DNA of 64,000 bases from an uncultured Pelagibacteraceae bacterium (lineage in GTDB: Bacteria > Pseudomonadota > Alphaproteobacteria > Pelagibacterales > Pelagibacteraceae), in NCBI GenBank assembly GCA_902517535.1, contig CABYCK010000001.1, forward strand, positions 21,317-85,316, given 5' to 3'. Each line of letters starts with the position of its first letter. The first letter of the stretch is position 1. Below are positions 16,302-30,485 of the stretch, in pieces. Under the pieces are notes generated by a model that ran no database searches, had not been told where the DNA came from, and worked only from the letters and a program-made list of their open reading frames with translations. A program made the translations under genes and the position numbers.

Positions 16302-16589
16302 ATGTCACAGCCAGACCTTATTATTCACGACGAAAAAGATAACGTTGGAGTTGTTGTAATAGAAACTACTAAAAAAGGTCAAGAATGTAGTGCCTGGATA
16401 ATGGAAAATGATAAAACAATTAAAGTAAGTTCAACTAATGAAGTTCCATTAGGTCACAAAATTGCGCTGAAAGATCTTAAGGAAGGTGACACTATATTAA
16501 AATATGGTCATGATATTGGTAAAGTAGTAAAGTCTATTAAAAAAGGTGATCATGTTCATGTTCATAATGTAAAAACGAAAAAGTGGTAA
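16302..16589 (+). CDS. suyA: Sulfolactate sulfo-lyase alpha subunit (SAF domain)
   Basis: [22 protein letters not shown] motifs; directly upstream of a UxaA-like gene. Confidence 0.85.
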
Positions 16590-16590
16590 T

Positions 16591-17760
16591 TTGATGGATA
16601 TTCCAAAAAGTTTTTTAGGCTTTAAAAGAGAGAATGGAAGAGCAGGAACAAGAAACCATGTGATTATACTTCCAGTAGATGATATTTCTAATGCTTGTGC
16701 AGAAGCAGTAGCAAACAATATTAAAGGTACCATCGCTTTACCTCACTCATACGGAAGATTGCAATTTGGAGCAGATCTCGAGTTGCATTTTAGAACAATG
16801 ATTGGAACAGGAAAAAATCCAAATGTTGCAGCTGTAATAGTTATTGGAATTGAACCTAAATGGACAAAAAGAATTGTTGACGAAATAGCAAAAACAGGAA
16901 AACCAGTAGAAGGATTTCATATAGAAAGAACTGGCGATATTGGAACAATAATGAAGGCGTCTAAAAAAGCTCAAGAATTTTCTCAGTGGGCATCTGAAAA
17001 ACAAAGAGAAGAGTGTCCCCTAAGTGATTTGTGGATTTCAGTTAAATGCGGAGAATCAGATACTACATCTGGATTGGCCTCAAACCCAACTGTAGGAAAT
17101 TTGATGGAAAAATTAGAACCCTTTGGAGTGCATTTATGTTTTGGAGAAACTTCAGAGTTAACCGGAGCAGAAACTGTTTGTGCAGCTCGAGGAGCAACTC
17201 CAGAAGCAAAAGAAAAATTTATGAAAACATGGAGCTCATACAATGATTTTATTCTGAAAGAAGCAACTAACGATCTTTCTGAAAGTCAACCTACAGCAGG
17301 TAATATTGCTGGTGGTTTAACAACTATAGAAGAAAAAGCTTTTGGAAACTTTCAAAAAATTGGAAACTTAAAATTTATTGATGTTCTTGAGCCTGCTGAG
17401 GAACCAAAGAAAGGTAAAGGATTATATTTTATGGATACTTCGTCTGCTGCAGCCGAGTGCGTAACTTTGCAAGCTGCTGGAGGTTTTAATATTCACTTAT
17501 TCCCTACAGGACAAGGAAACATTATTGGTAATCCCATAGAGCCAGTGGTCAAACTTACTGCAAACCCATTAACAGCTAAATTAATGAAAGAACATGTAGA
17601 CTGTGATGTTTCTAAAATTTTATCAAGAGAAATGAATTTATCTCAAGCTGGAGATCAACTTATCAAAACAATGTTAAAAGTGGCTAATGGAAGACTTACA
17701 TGTGCTGAAGCATTGGGTCACAGAGAATTTGTCATGACTAAATTATATAGAAGTGCGTAA
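16591..17760 (+). CDS. suyB: Sulfolactate sulfo-lyase beta subunit (UxaA family)
   Basis: [34 protein letters not shown] motifs, ends KLYRSA; sulfonate context. Confidence 0.85.
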
Positions 17761-17812: not shown

Positions 17813-18946
17813 TTATTTTTCCGGAAACTTAATTTCTTCTTTTTTTGGTTGATCTTTTTTTCTAAAGTCACTTAGTAGTCTTTTTATTATCGGACTTAAA
17901 ATTTTTCTAGCAACAGCTGCTAATGTTCCCAAAGAAACAGCTAGTATTATAGCTAAAGCTCCGTACAAAAATGGTGCTTCATTAGAAAAATTTACTGTAA
18001 ATTCGGCTAAAAAATTTAAATCTGATTTTGTTACTTGAACTCCATTTGAAATATTAGTTTTATCTCTAAAAAAAGAGTCGTAACCTATTGCAATTGAAAC
18101 TGATAAAAGAAGCATTGCAAAAAGAGATTTTAATTCTGTGCTATCTAAAAACTGGCCAACTTTTTGTCCGATTTGAACTCCAACTATTGATCCTAAAATT
18201 AAAGGTAAAACTAAAAATAAATCAATAGATCCATAGTTAAAAGCATGAAGAACGGTTACTATTGCGCTAATAAAAATTGTTACGAACAGTGAAGTACCAG
18301 GTATTAATTTCACTGGCATCCCAACAATATATATCATTGCGGGCACCATTAAAAATGCACCACCTATTCCCATCATTGATGCAACAAAGCCAACTACTAA
18401 TCCAAGTAATATTGGAGTAATGGCACTTTCATAAAGTTTTGATTTATGAAATCTCATTCTTAGAGGTAAGCCTTGAAGCCAATTATGGTCGTGTAATTTT
18501 TGTTTAATGGAAATCTTTTTTATTTTTCTATTTTTTTCCTTTACACCTTCAATTAGCATTAAAGTCCCAACGATTGCTAATAAATACATGTATAGAAGTG
18601 AAATAATTAAACTTATTTTACCTATTTCTGAAAAATAAGAAAAAGTTGTTATTCCAATAACTGTTCCGGCAACTCCTCCTAAAACGATCATTAATCCCAT
18701 TTTATAATCTAAAGTATTTTTATACCAATGAGTTAAAGAACCTGAAACCGAAGTTGCTAAAATGTTATTAACCTCATTTGGAACAGCATAAATAGGAGGA
18801 ATGCCCATAAAAATTAAAAAAGGTGTCATTAAAAACCCTCCACCTACTCCAAATAAGCCTGATAAAACTCCTACAGCTAAACTTAAGAAAAGAAGTAAAA
18901 AGATATCTACATTTACTTGAGCTATTGGTAAGTAAATATCTAGCAT
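17813..18946 (-). CDS. TauE/SafE family sulfite exporter
   Basis: Duplicated GLFGVGGG / MMGIGGA motifs; multi-TM. Confidence 0.85.
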   Translation of the reverse strand: MLDIYLPIAQVNVDIFLLLFLSLAVGVLSGLFGVGGGFLMTPFLIFMGIPPIYAVPNEVNNILATSVSGSLTHWYKNTLDYKMGLMIVLGGVAGTVIGITTFSYFSEIGKISLIISLLYMYLLAIVGTLMLIEGVKEKNRKIKKISIKQKLHDHNWLQGLPLRMRFHKSKLYESAITPILLGLVVGFVASMMGIGGAFLMVPAMIYIVGMPVKLIPGTSLFVTIFISAIVTVLHAFNYGSIDLFLVLPLILGSIVGVQIGQKVGQFLDSTELKSLFAMLLLSVSIAIGYDSFFRDKTNISNGVQVTKSDLNFLAEFTVNFSNEAPFLYGALAIILAVSLGTLAAVARKILSPIIKRLLSDFRKKDQPKKEEIKFPEK

Positions 18947-18982: not shown

Positions 18983-19333
18983 TTAATAAATTGTTGCACC
19001 AAATACTTTTATTTCATCTCCCTCTAAGCCTAAAACTAATCTACCTAGAAATTCGCCTGGTAATACATTGCTGGTTTGCTTGTAAAGGACAGTAATAAAC
19101 TTGTCTCTTCTAATGCAACCTAAAAATTCTTGTTTTTCAGAAAGGCTTGTAAGTAGTTTATTATTTGACCATTGTTTACCTAGCTCTACCTCATTAGCGC
19201 CATATAACATTTGCGAGGAAAAATCTTTTGTAAAACCTCCATAATCTTTAATATTAGATGATTTAACCAAATTTAACCAAATGGGATTAGCAATTTTAAT
19301 GATTTCTTCATCATTTTTGTCTAATAAATCCAT
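18983..19333 (-). CDS. Hypothetical protein downstream of aprA (possibly NTF2-like)
   Basis: 116 aa ORF starting 9 bp after the aprA stop. Confidence 0.7.
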   Translation of the reverse strand: MDLLDKNDEEIIKIANPIWLNLVKSSNIKDYGGFTKDFSSQMLYGANEVELGKQWSNNKLLTSLSEKQEFLGCIRRDKFITVLYKQTSNVLPGEFLGRLVLGLEGDEIKVFGATIY

Positions 19334-19342
19334 TAAAGATTT

Positions 19343-21202
19343 TTAAGAAGCTTTCTTATCTTTTTCGTCTCCAACAATATGGTAAACAGGCATTTTTTCC
19401 ATACTGAATTTACCAGTTTTTGGATCTCGTCTAGAAACTGTTAAGCAGTGCCAGTTCTCATCATCTAACTTTAGTTTATCACCTCTGTAATAATATCCTG
19501 GCCAACGAGTTTCTTCTCTAAATAAAGTATGTTCTGTTACGCATTGAGACGTTAATGTTCTATGTTTTAACTCCCATGCTCTCATCAACTGATGATAATC
19601 TTCGGCACCGACATTTTCTAAATCTTCTTGTAACCAATCCAAAAGCTCTAAACCTTTTTTAAGTAAGTTATCATTAGTCATATAATTAGCGGTAATACCT
19701 CCAACATATTCATCCATAATTTTTTGTAGTCGTTGTAGACCTTGAATTGGTGAAATATAACTTGGTGAAACTGTTCCGCCAGTAATTTCATTTCTGCCGA
19801 TGGTATAATTGTCTAAAGGTTTAAATATAATTTCTTTTAATTCGTCACACTGTTTATCCGTTACTTTAAGATTTTCAGCTTTTTTGTCCTCAATATATTT
19901 GACTGCTGCTTTAGCTGCTAATCTACCTTCCGTAAATGATCCAGATGAAAATTTATGGGCACTGCCTCCTACTGTGTCTCCAGCTCCAAAAAGGCCTTCT
20001 ATAGTTGTCATTCTGTTATAACCCCAAAAGTATTCTGGTGGAGATATATCTTCTGGCCCGCTTACCCAAGCCCCTGAACAAGTGGCATGTGACCCCATAA
20101 CATAAGGTTCGGATGTAGTAAGTTCTGGATTAGTATATTTTGGATCTATGTTTTGAGAAGCCCATACTACTGCTTGACCAACTGTCATTCCTAGAAAGTT
20201 TTCCCACCCAACTGTTTCTAAGTGAGGATCTTGAAAAGCTTCTTTTGTAACCATGTGTATTGGACCATTACCAGCCATTACTTCTTGAATAAATGCATGA
20301 TTTCTTAAACATGTCAGGGTTGGATGATGGTCTATATATTCCCCAACTAATTCTTTAGTTTTATCGTACCATTTTTTTTCGTAATTTTCACCGTTAGCAT
20401 TTTGCGTATAAGTTTTTAAATGCAAGAAGTATGCACCTACGGGACCGTAACCATCTTTAAATCTACATAATACAATTCTATTTTCCATTTGAGTCATTTT
20501 CGCACCTGCTGCAATTGGTAAAGCGTAAGCGGAACCATTGCTCCAAGGTGCGTACCATGTTCTACCCATGCCTTCACCAACAGATCGAGGTTTAAATATA
20601 TGTGAAGCGCCTCCAGCAGCCACAATTACGGTTTTAGCTCTAAATACATGGTAATCACCAGTTCTCATGTTAAAACCAACAGCGCCACCTACTCGATTAC
20701 TATTGCTCTCATCCATAAGTAAATGCGTAACCATTATTCTGTTATAAATTTTATCAGCTGATTTTTTTGCAGCCTCGGCAACTATTGGCTTGTAACTTTC
20801 ACCGTGAATCATTATTTGCCATTTACCTTCACGTTGATACCTCCCAGTTTTTTTATCTTTCATCATTGGAAGACCCCATTCATCGAACATATGGACTGTT
20901 GAGTCAACATGACGAGCCATGTCATAACCTAAATCTTCTCTTACTAATCCCATAAGATCATTTCTTGCATATCTTACGTGATCCTCGGGTTGATTTTCAT
21001 TCCATCTCATACCCATGTAACAATTAATTGCGTACAGACCTTGAGCTACAGCTCCACTTCTATCAATGTTTGCTTTTTCTACGCAGATGATTTTTAAATC
21101 TCTTCCCCAGTGCCTAGCTTCAAATGTTGCGCCAGTTCCGGCCATGCCTCCACCAACAACCAGTACATCGCAATCTTCATGAATTGTTTTGTTTTTAGGC
21201 AT
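19343..21202 (-). CDS. aprA: Adenylylsulfate reductase alpha subunit
   Basis: RSGAVAQGLYAIN, WQIMIHGESYK, RFKDGYGPVG, GSAHKFSSGS, ETRWPGYY motifs. Confidence 0.96.
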   Translation of the reverse strand: MPKNKTIHEDCDVLVVGGGMAGTGATFEARHWGRDLKIICVEKANIDRSGAVAQGLYAINCYMGMRWNENQPEDHVRYARNDLMGLVREDLGYDMARHVDSTVHMFDEWGLPMMKDKKTGRYQREGKWQIMIHGESYKPIVAEAAKKSADKIYNRIMVTHLLMDESNSNRVGGAVGFNMRTGDYHVFRAKTVIVAAGGASHIFKPRSVGEGMGRTWYAPWSNGSAYALPIAAGAKMTQMENRIVLCRFKDGYGPVGAYFLHLKTYTQNANGENYEKKWYDKTKELVGEYIDHHPTLTCLRNHAFIQEVMAGNGPIHMVTKEAFQDPHLETVGWENFLGMTVGQAVVWASQNIDPKYTNPELTTSEPYVMGSHATCSGAWVSGPEDISPPEYFWGYNRMTTIEGLFGAGDTVGGSAHKFSSGSFTEGRLAAKAAVKYIEDKKAENLKVTDKQCDELKEIIFKPLDNYTIGRNEITGGTVSPSYISPIQGLQRLQKIMDEYVGGITANYMTNDNLLKKGLELLDWLQEDLENVGAEDYHQLMRAWELKHRTLTSQCVTEHTLFREETRWPGYYYRGDKLKLDDENWHCLTVSRRDPKTGKFSMEKMPVYHIVGDEKDKKAS

Positions 21203-21672
21203 TAATAGTAAACACCCTTTTTAAAAGAGTCTTTACTTATTGTAGGCAAATCTTTTTTAGTATCAAGTCCCTCAGGTTCTGAGTATAAAACTTCTGAGTT
21301 CATTTCTCCTTGTCTAGGTTTATCACCTTCAGCCAACTTGGGAATAAATTTTCCCCAAGGCTTAGTTGTAATAGGTGAAACAAAATCTTTTTCAGTTCCA
21401 TTTCTAAACTTTATTTTCCAAGATATAGTTCCTTTTTCCTCTTCCCTTCTTACTCTTACGCTATGACCCATGGGTGCAAAATCTGCGTAACCTCTAACAT
21501 CAATAGCGTGATTAGGACAAGCTTTTACACATGAATAACATTCCCAGCAAAAATTAGGTTCAATATTTTTTGCTCTACGAATAGTTTCATCAATATGCAT
21601 AATGTCTGAAGGACAAATATCTACACAGTGTCCGCATCCATCGCATCTCGTCATATATACAAAAGTAGACAT
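21202..21672 (-). CDS. aprB: Adenylylsulfate reductase beta subunit
   Basis: Two [4Fe-4S] motifs CDGCGHCVDICP and CWECYSCVKACP; VRGYADF. Confidence 0.96.
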   Translation of the reverse strand: MSTFVYMTRCDGCGHCVDICPSDIMHIDETIRRAKNIEPNFCWECYSCVKACPNHAIDVRGYADFAPMGHSVRVRREEEKGTISWKIKFRNGTEKDFVSPITTKPWGKFIPKLAEGDKPRQGEMNSEVLYSEPEGLDTKKDLPTISKDSFKKGVYY

Positions 21673-21735: not shown

Positions 21736-22527
21736 TTAATAATGTTTTGGTTGTTCTCTTTTAATACCTAAGCCAAATTGTTCTGGTGCATCGGCTGGAG
21801 GAGGCAAATTGTCTCTAGAACCATCTGCTTCAGCTAAATTTTTTTGTATAGCAGCACCAGGTTTATAAAACATATGTGCAAATTTAGACCAGTAAACTCC
21901 ACCGAATAACACTAGATTTGCTAGAAAAAATAAAATTAAAAATAAATAGCTTAATCCTGTCATTCCCGATGATTGTAAAAATGACCAAGCTAATCCAAAA
22001 GTAGCACAGGCTAGCAAGGCTAAAACAAATAAATCAGCGGTAATAATTCTATACCAAGGATGAGCCTCTGCTGAAACATCTACTCTTAAAAAAAACCAAA
22101 ACCAATAACCGCCAACACAAGTCATTATCGCCCCTATATGCCACATAATGGGAATGTAAGTTGGAGCTTCTACACCTTCAGAATATTTAAATATTAAAAT
22201 TACTGACGCGATCCAAAAGAGAATTGTACCGTACATTCCAAGAACATGAGCTAGTCTTCTTTTACCAAAGCCAAGCTCTGATGTTGTAGCTATATCGCTT
22301 GCTACAGTTTTTAAAATCACAGCTGTTTTTTTTCCAGTACTTAATTCTGTTTTTGCGGATTTTTTTGCTTTTTTAGCATTTCTAAAAAAATAAATTACGT
22401 TCTTTTTATGTAGCATGTCTAAACTTGTTCCAATGATAATAAATAAAATCATGGCGATAACGAAAAATTGTATTGCTTGGGCTGAAATAATTAAAGCTAA
22501 ATCTGCAAATGGGTTATGTGTAAGCAT
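21736..22527 (-). CDS. aprM: APS reductase membrane anchor AprM
   Basis: Multi-TM; AHVLGMYG, WFFLRVDV and WSKFAHMFYKP motifs; directly upstream of aprBA. Confidence 0.9.
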   Translation of the reverse strand: MLTHNPFADLALIISAQAIQFFVIAMILFIIIGTSLDMLHKKNVIYFFRNAKKAKKSAKTELSTGKKTAVILKTVASDIATTSELGFGKRRLAHVLGMYGTILFWIASVILIFKYSEGVEAPTYIPIMWHIGAIMTCVGGYWFWFFLRVDVSAEAHPWYRIITADLFVLALLACATFGLAWSFLQSSGMTGLSYLFLILFFLANLVLFGGVYWSKFAHMFYKPGAAIQKNLAEADGSRDNLPPPADAPEQFGLGIKREQPKHY

Positions 22528-22551: not shown

Positions 22552-22580
22552 ATTTTATATATGAGATATTTGAAGGTCAA
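22552..22580 (-). promoter_or_regulatory. Sigma70-type promoter for aprMBA
   Basis: TTGACC-N17-TAAAAT on the minus strand, then AAGGAG SD and the aprM ATG. Confidence 0.65.
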
Positions 22581-22597
22581 GTGAGAACAGCTCGCAA

Positions 22598-22978
22598 TTA
22601 TTTGAGCTTTCCTTCTTTTCGCATTTGTGCTCTTATTTTAGTAGCTGAAATCTGTTGTATTTTTTCATCAAGGACTATTTCCTCAATTTTATAACCTACA
22701 CCTCTACCGTAACAAATATTGGTAATATTTGGAACTAAAGTGACTTGAATTCTATTTTTGTAATCTTTTAAAGCAGTAAGTATATTTTTTTTTACTGTTT
22801 CAAATTCAAATGGATTATCTTCTACACCCTGGACATCTCTAACCATAATATTTACTTGACCAGTTTTTTTTAAAATTTCCTCAAACAATTTTTGGTGACC
22901 TGCGTGCCACGGTTGCCATCGTCCTAGCATCTGAGCAGTGGGAAGCTTGTTATCCCAAACGTGATTGTCGTTTTTCAT
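22598..22978 (-). CDS. Minimal HxGH nucleotidyltransferase (cytidylyltransferase-like)
   Basis: GRWQPWHAGH (HxGH) and ISATKIR motifs in 126 aa. Confidence 0.8.
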   Translation of the reverse strand: MKNDNHVWDNKLPTAQMLGRWQPWHAGHQKLFEEILKKTGQVNIMVRDVQGVEDNPFEFETVKKNILTALKDYKNRIQVTLVPNITNICYGRGVGYKIEEIVLDEKIQQISATKIRAQMRKEGKLK

Positions 22979-22995: not shown

Positions 22996-23667
22996 TTAAG
23001 CAGCTGCTGTCTGTAACTTATGTTTAGAAGTCATTCCACTTAAAAAATTCCAAAGATACCTTGCTGTTAAGAGAGAGGCTTTTTCAGCTTTCTCTTGTTC
23101 TTCTTTAGATAAATCATCTAAAAGTTTTTCACATTCCGCTCTATGTATTACATCTGCAGATTTGTGAGCTTCAAAAAATTCAAGACCGTCTTTAGAATTT
23201 ACTCCATAAAATTTTTTAAGTCCTTGGATCTTAGTTTCAGCTATTTCCGGTATTTGTCTTTCATAAGTATACAAAGACGCCAATCCTTCAGCATAAGATT
23301 TTCGAGCTTGATAAAAAAAATTTTCAATCATATCTTTTGTAAACCAATCTAGCTTTACGTTTTCAATATTTTTATCGTCAGCTCCCAAAGCTTTAGCAAA
23401 ATTTTTCCATAATTTTGGATGATCTCCATCTTTATTTTCTTCATCTTGCAAATTCTCTAAAAGAATTCTTCTTTTATCTAAGTCTTCGCATATAGAATGA
23501 GTGGCGCTAATATATCTGGGAAATGCTTTAACATGCTGATAATATTGTTCAGCATAATCTTTAATTATTTCTCGAGTTAATTTTCCTTCATTCCAATATA
23601 CTTGGTAAAAAGGATGTTTGAGTAAATGAAATTTGTCTAACTTTTCTCCTAAATCTTTTGAAAACAT
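22996..23667 (-). CDS. CADD-family (PqqC/heme-oxygenase-like dimetal) putative para-aminobenzoate synthase
   Basis: HLLKHPFY, QYYQHVKAFPRY, ENLQDEE...H, YERQIPEIAETKIQGL, H...D..H metal ligands. Confidence 0.85.
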   Translation of the reverse strand: MFSKDLGEKLDKFHLLKHPFYQVYWNEGKLTREIIKDYAEQYYQHVKAFPRYISATHSICEDLDKRRILLENLQDEENKDGDHPKLWKNFAKALGADDKNIENVKLDWFTKDMIENFFYQARKSYAEGLASLYTYERQIPEIAETKIQGLKKFYGVNSKDGLEFFEAHKSADVIHRAECEKLLDDLSKEEQEKAEKASLLTARYLWNFLSGMTSKHKLQTAAA

Positions 23668-29539: not shown

Positions 29540-29719
29540 ATGTATATTGATCTAGAGCCAGGTGATTATGTAACTAATCCAGCAAATCAAAGCTGGGGTG
29601 TGGGACAAATTCAATCTATAATTGGTAGTAAAGTTACTGTAAATTTTGAAAATTTTGGAAAACAAGTGCTAAATATTGAAAAGGTTACTTTAAAGAAATT
29701 AGATAATGAACAAAAATGA
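29540..29719 (+). CDS. DUF3553-like small protein (59 aa)
   Basis: Not in ORF track; [41 protein letters not shown]...; overlaps the cysQ start. Confidence 0.8.
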
Positions 29720-30485
29720 ACTTAAAATCTTAGCCGAGAGTTTACTCGAAACTTTCCATTTTGCAGGTCAAAAATCAATTGAATTGTATGAGAATGGATT
29801 AAATATCAATATTAAAAAAGACAAAACACCTGTTAGCAATGGAGATCTTGAGGTTAATAAAATTATTACAAGTAAAATTTCAAATATCACTCCAAATATA
29901 CCAATTATTTCTGAAGAAACAGTTGACACTAATATAAAAAATAAAGCCAAAATTTTTTGGCTGATTGATCCTATTGATGGAACCAGAGAGTATATTGCAG
30001 GAAAAAATGAATATACGTTAAATGCAGCTTTAGTAATAGACAAAATTCCGGTACTAGGTCTAGTAGGTGTTCCAAAAAAAAATAGACTTTTTTATTCATT
30101 TAATCCAGGAGAAAGTTTTTTAATAGAAAATAATTCTACAAAAAAATTAGATTGTTCAAAAAAACAACCAAAAAATAAAATTGTAGCTTTATCAAGTGTT
30201 GGAAAACCTTCAGATATAATCTTGAATACACTAAAGAAATTTGATGTAAATTTAATTGTACAAATGGCTAGTTCATATAAATTTTGTGTTATTGCTACAG
30301 GCGAATATGATATTTATGCCGCTAGAGAAAGAGCAAATGAGTGGGACTATGCTGCAGGTCACGCTATAGCATCAAATGCAGGTGCAATTATCAAAACTTT
30401 GGATGGTAAACCATTTTTATATGGCAAAGAAGATTATAGAAATCCTAGTTTGTTAATAAAGAGATCAGAAAACTTAAATGATTAA
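29706..30485 (+). CDS. cysQ: 3'(2'),5'-bisphosphate nucleotidase
   Basis: ISEE, WLIDPIDGTREY, EWDYAAGHA and YGK motifs. Confidence 0.85.
   Translation: MNKNELKILAESLLETFHFAGQKSIELYENGLNINIKKDKTPVSNGDLEVNKIITSKISNITPNIPIISEETVDTNIKNKAKIFWLIDPIDGTREYIAGKNEYTLNAALVIDKIPVLGLVGVPKKNRLFYSFNPGESFLIENNSTKKLDCSKKQPKNKIVALSSVGKPSDIILNTLKKFDVNLIVQMASSYKFCVIATGEYDIYAARERANEWDYAAGHAIASNAGAIIKTLDGKPFLYGKEDYRNPSLLIKRSENLND

Follow-up and report, generated by a model that had tools for sequence, protein, structure and literature searches.

A small NadM-like nucleotidyltransferase beside the aprMBA genes of SAR11 bacteria is a candidate ATP sulfurylase

Known routes of APS removal and the locus under study

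Allochromatium vinosum co-transcribes the gene of ATP sulfurylase (Sat) with those of adenosine 5'-phosphosulfate (APS) reductase as sat-aprMBA, and Sat contacts APS via a QxRN motif, an HxxH motif, a GRD loop and an SGTxxR motif (PMC3779200). APAT (ADP sulfurylase) is a known alternative to Sat (PMC8232776), and proteins of the HIT family hydrolyse APS (Table 1 of PMC4613722). SAR11 bacteria are described in PMC5069961 as being without cysDNCHIJ and sat, and their AprBA is thought there to serve sulfite removal; sat was present in one of seven SAR11 strains according to PMC3448164. Since aprAB are among the most constrained SAR11 core genes, with very strong purifying selection acting on them (PMC12636525), and sat and cysDN are nonetheless missing (PMC5069961), the fate of APS in SAR11 is unexplained. 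The present analysis concerns a 64,000-nucleotide stretch from an uncultured Pelagibacteraceae bacterium (GenBank assembly GCA_902517535.1, contig CABYCK010000001.1, positions 21,317 to 85,316), hereafter the window, in which the gene directly upstream of aprM encodes a 126-amino-acid HxGH nucleotidyltransferase. This protein and its family are called mini for short. The genes at the centre of the locus are as follows.

22598..22978, minus strand: mini, HxGH nucleotidyltransferase of 126 amino acids, candidate NadM-derived ATP sulfurylase
21736..22527, minus strand: aprM, APS reductase membrane anchor, so named for its position and a weak match to QmoC (E 2e-5)
21202..21672, minus strand: aprB, above the cut-off of NCBIfam TIGR02060
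19343..21202, minus strand: aprA, above the cut-off of NCBIfam TIGR02061

The slot before aprM is thus filled as in A. vinosum, and the same reaction is proposed for its product; the window's aprM differs in having a separate promoter. Sat and mini share the superfamily fold (Z 5.6–8.3), HxxH and an SGTxxR-like motif, and mini has a GRD-like loop as a candidate counterpart of the GRD loop, whereas Sat has about 340–400 residues against 126, and mini is without the PUA domain, QxRN and GxxKxxD.

Genomic context makes it likely that the mini family acts catalytically on APS. With somewhat less assurance, mini is probably a NadM-derived ATP sulfurylase that runs the reaction APS + pyrophosphate (PPi) -> ATP + sulfate and serves AprMBA in this cell. 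The argument is one of shared substrate: APS alone is common to APS kinase, to sulfotransferase cassettes free of Sat and to APS reductase, the three partners described below, and HxGH chemistry on APS is that of an ATP sulfurylase. The widest form of the proposal is favoured only slightly. In that form mini would be a third, separately evolved ATP sulfurylase family and the smallest known, a NadM-type enzyme minus the nicotinamide-binding helix that forms a strand-swapped dimer; in most SAR11 it would use sulfite from sulfonates for substrate-level phosphorylation and so yield ATP, would have joined aprMBA on two or more occasions, and would be part of a self-contained 3'-phosphoadenosine 5'-phosphosulfate (PAPS) synthase in many phages and some archaea, where the present labels cysC or cytidyltransferase would be wrong.

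The mini gene and the search for Sat and CysD

The mini open reading frame (ORF) is real and conserved. It has an ATG start, a TAA stop and 126 translated codons, and lies 70 bp from aprM, which starts at 22527 on the same strand; coordinates and translation confirm an earlier sequence-only reading of the window, which had reported a gene with GRWQPWHAGH and ISATKIR in this place. All 7999 scored candidates reached E <= 0.001, and purifying selection is strong (dN 0.035–0.069 and dS 1.6 to saturated in 12 orthologue comparisons of non-synonymous and synonymous divergence).

The same reading saw no ATP sulfurylase in the window, and profile searches of the whole source assembly, which is 78% complete, agree: PF01747 gave no Sat candidate, a local hidden Markov model (HMM) of Sat had no match, and neither had TIGR02039 for CysD. 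Canonical Sat turned up in 5 of 141 SAR11 genomes, namely 4 of 121 from the window's family and 1 of 20 from a second SAR11 family, and CysD in none of the five SAR11 genomes searched. The rare SAR11 Sat genes (L174–L177 and L407) are divergent and encode 339–364 amino acids; a pyruvate-kinase-family gene adjoins L176, and such a gene also stands beside several kinase fusions of the island type (L231, L232, L246, L278 and L286). The mini family was not found in 400 other Pseudomonadota searched with the window protein at E 1e-8. A literature search covering mostly open-access papers returned no paper that gives the mini domain a function.

Partnership with APS kinase and sulfotransferases

Four sets of loci were compared, two viral (80 and 75 loci), one from metagenomes (80) and one of the 80 best genome loci, 315 in all. 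A kinase is fused to mini or lies within 1.2 kb of it at 74 of 80 loci in one viral set and 71 of 75 in the other, at 72 of 80 metagenome loci (217 of 235 together), and at 16 of the 80 genome loci. The kinase is an N-terminal APS-kinase-like P-loop domain in 118 of the 120 top longer homologues and, among distant representatives with 220 or more amino acids, in 26 of 30. All 11 PDB matches of one kinase-mini fusion were APS kinases, and the profile of the partner kinase matches APS kinases at E ~1e-13 vs 1e-3 for the NadR kinase. Full-length CysC-mini fusions occur in both orders (P0379; haloarchaea).

These proteins resemble bifunctional PAPS synthases and fusions of Sat with CysC (human PAPSS1, Aquifex 2gks): APS kinase and an HxGH transferase are likewise linked, whichever of the two comes first, near sulfotransferases. 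They differ in total size (about 260 amino acids), in their NadM-derived transferase and in a kinase that is usually truncated; the window copy is free of kinase. In PHROG 10255, labelled 'kinase', mini matches the C-terminal half (E 3e-26) and an unlinked kinase of the source genome the N-terminal half. Neither this label nor the database label 'cytidyltransferase' gives a substrate for the transferase domain. The unlinked gene is an orphan APS-kinase-like gene of the partner family, encoding 141 amino acids (G000:C10:21511-21933; L001), with no adjoining transferase; its neighbours are a NAD kinase gene and an alkaline-phosphatase-superfamily gene.

Sulfotransferases form the second kind of partner. 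The mini domain was found on 10 haloarchaeal plasmids, and in all five examined a sulfotransferase gene is followed by a CysC-mini fusion; no sat or cysD is annotated within 14 kb of these five loci, a statement limited to the plasmid loci themselves. The haloarchaeal cassette (L184–L188) also carries a YqcI/YcgG protein. In the nod cluster of Microvirga lotononidis (L189:4809-10347) a kinase-mini fusion lies directly before CysD/CysN-like genes, with a NodH-like sulfotransferase on its other side. Its transferase motifs are degenerate, as if relaxed by redundancy, in this one case.

Across the four sets a local HMM built from 11 of these sulfotransferases placed one near mini at 33 of 315 loci (1/80, 1/80, 11/80 and 20/75), a count from related loci for which there is no background rate; 32 of the 33 are on the same strand as the kinase/mini unit and 23 abut it. 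Eight metagenome sulfotransferases were first identified by Pfam, and the 20 viral ones rest on the local HMM. Neither sat nor cysD occurs in any of the 315 loci. Pfam neighbour scans covered 89 of 199 neighbour clusters, 109 of 137 metagenome neighbours and 43 of 104 further neighbours.

Linkage with APS reductase in SAR11

The third partner is APS reductase. Among 121 genomes of the window's family, mini occurs together with aprB in 85 (the unpublished genome G087 included) and without it in 8; 5 have aprB but not mini, and 23 have neither gene. The window's genus includes 10 apr-positive genomes; all of them have mini 1.3–1.4 kb from aprB, and in 9 of the 10 the kinase had no match. Among the 80 best genome loci, mini immediately precedes aprM in the same orientation in 56, and 59 of the 64 kinase-free loci adjoin apr. 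Outside the window's genus the kinase is adjacent in 71 of 80 mini-positive genomes.

In the second SAR11 family mini is present in exactly 13 of 20 genomes, those with aprB, and Sat in none of the 13. The gene lies within 2.7 kb of apr in 12 of the 13, and the remaining pair is split by a contig end. The layout is a different one, with a kinase-mini pair on the other side and the opposite strand, converging on aprA; in one further genome a kinase-mini unit stands three genes upstream of aprM. A quick tree nests the window's group among kinase fusions and puts the second family elsewhere, with 42 of 83 branches open. An approximately unbiased (AU) test, made with a simpler model and 44 of 86 rows (7 long and 35 other rows left out) after the first tree had been seen, rejects a single clade for both apr-linked groups (p 0.008). 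This fits two recruitments of mini to apr; descent with the host and later rearrangement could give the same pattern.

Relation of the protein to NadM and Sat

The residues that matter to the proposed function fall into four segments.

22895..22924, minus strand: GRWQPWHAGH, residues 19–28, the HxGH ATP/PPi site of NadM type, from motif conservation
22838..22840, minus strand: Arg47, at the position of the GSA segment in the NadM alignment, candidate sulfate or anion contact
22691..22711, minus strand: YGRGVGY, residues 90–96, family form YGR[D/G/K]VGY, candidate counterpart of the GRD loop of Sat, from conservation and the predicted dimer
22631..22651, minus strand: ISATKIR, residues 110–116, like SGTxxR of Sat (PMC3779200) and the NadM equivalent, from the invariant R116 and the NadM alignment

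Among 64 non-redundant homologues G19 and H28 of the first motif are invariant, and R20, Q22, P23, H25 and G27 are conserved to 97–98%. Residue 47 is R in 91% and K in 8%; in the YGR loop G91 and G95 are invariant, R92 reaches 98% and D93 64%. R47 and R92 are candidate anion contacts. The model places the YGR[D/G/K]VG loop after the strand next to beta1, and hhalign did not align it with the GRD of Sat. The form S[AG]TxIR matches the SGTxxR motif and its R116 is invariant; since NadM has the same motif, it is not diagnostic for Sat.

Such conservation bears on the idea that mini is a non-catalytic subunit or regulator, binding APS or an adenylate, of APS kinase and APS reductase. A very small protein might suit that role, as might the L189 copy with its degenerate motifs beside CysD/CysN-like genes. 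H25, H28, R20, R92 and R116 are nevertheless conserved to 98–100% and selection on the gene is strongly purifying, so the idea is very improbable.

The mini sequence falls below all curated cut-offs: CTP_transf_like scores 18.6 vs 21 bits, ATP-sulfurylase PF01747 13.8 vs 24.3, and the NadM profiles PRK01153 and TIGR01527 27.7 vs 127 and 23.1 vs 181. There was no match to PF14306 (N-terminal PUA-like domain) or to PF01507 or TIGR02039 (PAPS_reduct/CysD) in the protein. Compared with NadM (MJ0541, PRK01153, PRK05379), mini has the motifs GRFQPxHxGH (GRxQPxHxGH in the wider form), NP and SAT.IR and a structural Z of about 10. It differs in being about 30 residues shorter, in having RD for GSA, in its own signature PNI..I.YGR[D/G/K]VGY and in its sulfur-enzyme partners. 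The GSA segment of NadM binds nicotinamide mononucleotide (NMN), and a D..W helix in the lost region holds nicotinamide riboside. By its profiles and motifs mini derives from NadM and fails membership of both Sat and NadM.

The monomer model (mean predicted local distance difference test, pLDDT, 93; residues 83–104 without regular structure) makes mini an HxGH nucleotidyltransferase with a Rossmann-like fold. The top 32 matches of a wide structural search all belong to the HUP/HxGH superfamily, the best with Z 10.6, a root-mean-square deviation of 2.9 and 114 aligned residues. Foldseek with the model returned nothing at E <= 0.001, and the ESM Atlas matches were 'cytidyltransferase' clusters only.

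The kinship with NadM leads to the alternative that mini is a minimal NMN or nicotinic acid mononucleotide adenylyltransferase and that kinase plus transferase form a NadR-like NAD salvage module of the kind common in phages. NadR joins the same two folds, NadR chains are among the profile and structural matches of mini, NadM families are the closest ones, and the unlinked kinase of the source genome follows a NAD kinase gene. The partner kinase, by its profile, matches APS kinases far better than the NadR kinase, and the roughly 30 NadM residues that are gone include the D..W segment. NadD is present in 7 of 9 relatives, the misses coinciding with assembly gaps, and no Nampt, PnuC or other NAD salvage gene was found among the mini neighbours scanned. 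NAD salvage is accordingly an unlikely function, well down the list. Lack of NadD in the source genome was considered and rejected, the whole ctpA-nadD-proA block being missing from the assembly. Other genes supply the housekeeping functions of such enzymes, the genome having CoaD and a RibF-sized CTP_transf_like protein.

Mini is predicted to be a homodimer, apparently with a swapped fourth strand. A two-copy prediction scored 0.83 vs 0.00 for the best control, a level that 20 of 30 solved homodimers and 1 of 23 monomers attain; similarity to superfamily oligomers of solved structure may add to this score. The runs agree on 100% of contacts, with pLDDT >= 90. Residues 14–16 of one chain contact 84–89 of the other, and the active sites are predicted to be composite, each built from the HxGH half of one subunit and the YGR loop of its partner.

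The proposed reaction and the points against it

In the proposed pathway Xsc and SuyAB would free sulfite from sulfonates, AprBA would couple the sulfite to AMP while the electrons pass to AprM, and mini would convert APS and PPi to ATP and sulfate, regenerating the adenylate. In phages, haloarchaea and other SAR11, mini and APS kinase would run forwards and supply PAPS for sulfotransferases. APS + PPi -> ATP is the thermodynamically favoured direction. A membrane H+-pyrophosphatase was found in five of five SAR11 genomes tested (G000:C30 in the source genome) and a soluble pyrophosphatase of family I or II in none of the five, which is consistent with PPi being conserved.

Mini might also act on APS without PPi, by phosphorolysis (APS + phosphate -> ADP + sulfate) or by hydrolysis to AMP and sulfate. 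Genomic context indicates APS only, and the interchange with HIT in the slot before aprM would suit any chemistry that removes APS. The near-invariant HxGH and SATxIR argue otherwise, both of which bind the beta and gamma phosphates of ATP or PPi in the superfamily (PMC3779200). A hydrolase would also be of little use as the fusion partner of APS kinase where a sulfotransferase cassette has no other source of APS. Such a route is improbable.

A number of observations weigh against mini as the ATP sulfurylase of AprMBA. When the 64 homologues were compared by hhalign with 8 NadM, 34 Sat and 4 NadD sequences, NadM came first (99.5%, E 5e-22), followed by NadD (81%) and Sat (11%, E 0.003). The sulfate-binding QxRN of Sat (PMC3779200) is missing, GRWQPWHAGH retaining HxxH only. 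Structural Z values are 10.6 for PPAT, 10.2 for NadM and 8.3 for Thermus Sat, so close a ranking that, on the model, the fold search does not discriminate. The partner kinase is truncated to about 135 amino acids, and its activity is putative; 79 of 80 close phage loci and two cultured phage loci examined have no sulfotransferase. Within SAR11, the five apr-positive genomes named above have no mini match, and three close relatives (L034, L051 and G011) keep an intact mini without apr at the locus. In genus g5, 49 genomes have mini and aprB on one contig, never closer than 38.9 kb, and a 133-amino-acid HIT-family protein stands directly upstream of aprM; in 75 genomes its distance from aprB is no more than 1.5 kb. 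The aprM gene has its own promoter, with TTGACC in 56 of the 56 loci where mini abuts aprM, and co-transcription of the two genes is doubtful for that reason. Genomes and loci are related, so that the counts are not independent.

Several parts of the sequence-only reading have to be narrowed accordingly. It had proposed a stripped-down Sat-like enzyme; handling of APS agrees with the three kinds of genomic partner, whereas derivation from Sat conflicts with the NadM profile and the lack of QxRN. A trimmed Sat was therefore rejected as the origin of mini. Adjacency to apr, which that reading had named as a check, holds in the window's genus (10/10) and the second family (12/13) and fails in g5. 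The 'sat position' is likewise lineage-specific, true of the window's genus and not of g5, the largest genus, because there the HIT protein sits upstream of aprM and mini is elsewhere with a kinase.

The apr-linked HIT protein is itself a candidate APAT or APS hydrolase.

L279:5534-5932, also G017:C1:745533: apr-linked HIT protein P0390, HIT family

APAT and APS-hydrolysing HIT proteins resemble mini as alternative means of removing APS after APS reductase, with HIT in the same slot of other SAR11; their fold is unrelated to that of mini, and the window protein has no HIT motif. In five genomes of the window's genus the HIT protein lies about 3.8–3.9 kb from aprB. It was not found in the source genome, in four other apr-positive congeners (90–96% complete) or in 20 second-family genomes, and where it was not found mini is the only APS-removing candidate seen.

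A division of labour could follow, in which mini is a biosynthetic ATP sulfurylase working with an unlinked kinase to make PAPS, HIT removes the APS of AprBA, and mini lies beside aprM by chance, in a slot with variable insertions. A kinase is indeed the usual partner of the mini family, the source genome has the unlinked 141-residue kinase on contig C10, and other genes too insert between mini and its upstream neighbour, the CADD-family gene, in relatives. HIT near aprB in 75 + 5 genomes, with the APS hydrolysis reported for HIT proteins (PMC4613722) and the replacement of Sat by APAT (PMC8232776), would supply the other half. Against this, PAPS could not be made in the 9 of 10 apr-positive congeners with no kinase match, the HIT protein is wanting in the genomes just listed, and the local HMM found no sulfotransferase in the source assembly. 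The division of labour is thus unlikely, if less so than the other alternatives.

Mini and the apr-linked HIT protein are two small soluble candidates for APS removal in SAR11, open to direct assay. If mini uses the PPi route, the ocean's most abundant cells would gain ATP, not just detoxification, from sulfonate sulfur. Mini would be a variant, separately evolved, of a reaction already known, closing a recognised gap in SAR11, and pathway reconstructions that equate 'no sat/cysDN' with 'no sulfate activation' would be mistaken about SAR11, many phage cysC genes and some haloarchaea.

Neighbouring genes, promoter and transcription

The window's gene order is CADD, mini, aprM, aprB, aprA, a 116-amino-acid ORF and tauE, then probable suyAB and xsc. 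The remaining features of the locus are these.

22996..23667, minus strand: CADD-family folate gene, 17 bp upstream of mini (TIGR04305)
22582..22596, no strand: 15-bp imperfect palindrome TG-N11-CA abutting the aprM -35 box upstream, candidate operator from its conservation
22552..22580, minus strand: sigma70-like promoter of aprM, TTGACC, 17 nucleotides, TAAAAT, conserved in relatives
18983..19333, minus strand: NTF2/SnoaL-like ORF after aprA, 116 amino acids, conserved
17813..18946, minus strand: TauE/SafE-family sulfite exporter (PF01925)
16302..17760, plus strand: SAF and UxaA-family pair, probably SuyAB sulfolactate sulfo-lyase, named from the families, a sulfite source (PMC12636525)
14448..16229, minus strand: xsc, sulfoacetaldehyde acetyltransferase, a sulfite source, above the cut-off of TIGR03457

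Mini might be thought to work with CADD in folate or p-aminobenzoic acid (pABA) metabolism, given the 17-bp spacing, the shared strand and one RNA-derived contig that bridges both genes. In genus g5, the second family, phages and archaea mini has no adjoining CADD, and in other genera pabB-pabA-pabC replace it in the slot upstream of aprM (L279:3099-5531; L276:7783-10248). A joint role is most improbable, and CADD is probably a neighbour of mini and not a functional partner. CADD is read as a folate neighbour because pabB-pabA-pabC fill the same slot elsewhere, and the alternation suggests displacement of pABA synthesis between SAR11 genera.

The sequence-only reading had placed a sigma70-like promoter between mini and aprM, and the TTGACC of the abutting loci supports it. 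A locus scan found no minus-strand terminator. None of 24 RNA runs contained more than 10% of the words; contigs from four RNA runs span mini and are thin between mini and aprM, and such contigs cannot reveal transcript ends. TG-N11-CA was present in 51 of 56 loci, with a mean of 5.0 of 7 pairs, and was not seen in eight loci checked from other genera. The palindrome fits a faint shared consensus of alphaproteobacterial iron regulators, and the accessible part of that source does not name aprM as a target (PMC1698941).

The NTF2/SnoaL-like ORF lies 3' of aprA in both SAR11 families. A CysQ-like gene of the inositol-monophosphatase family lies at 29706-30485 of the window, 7 kb from mini, and in L245 such a gene is directly 3' of a kinase fusion.
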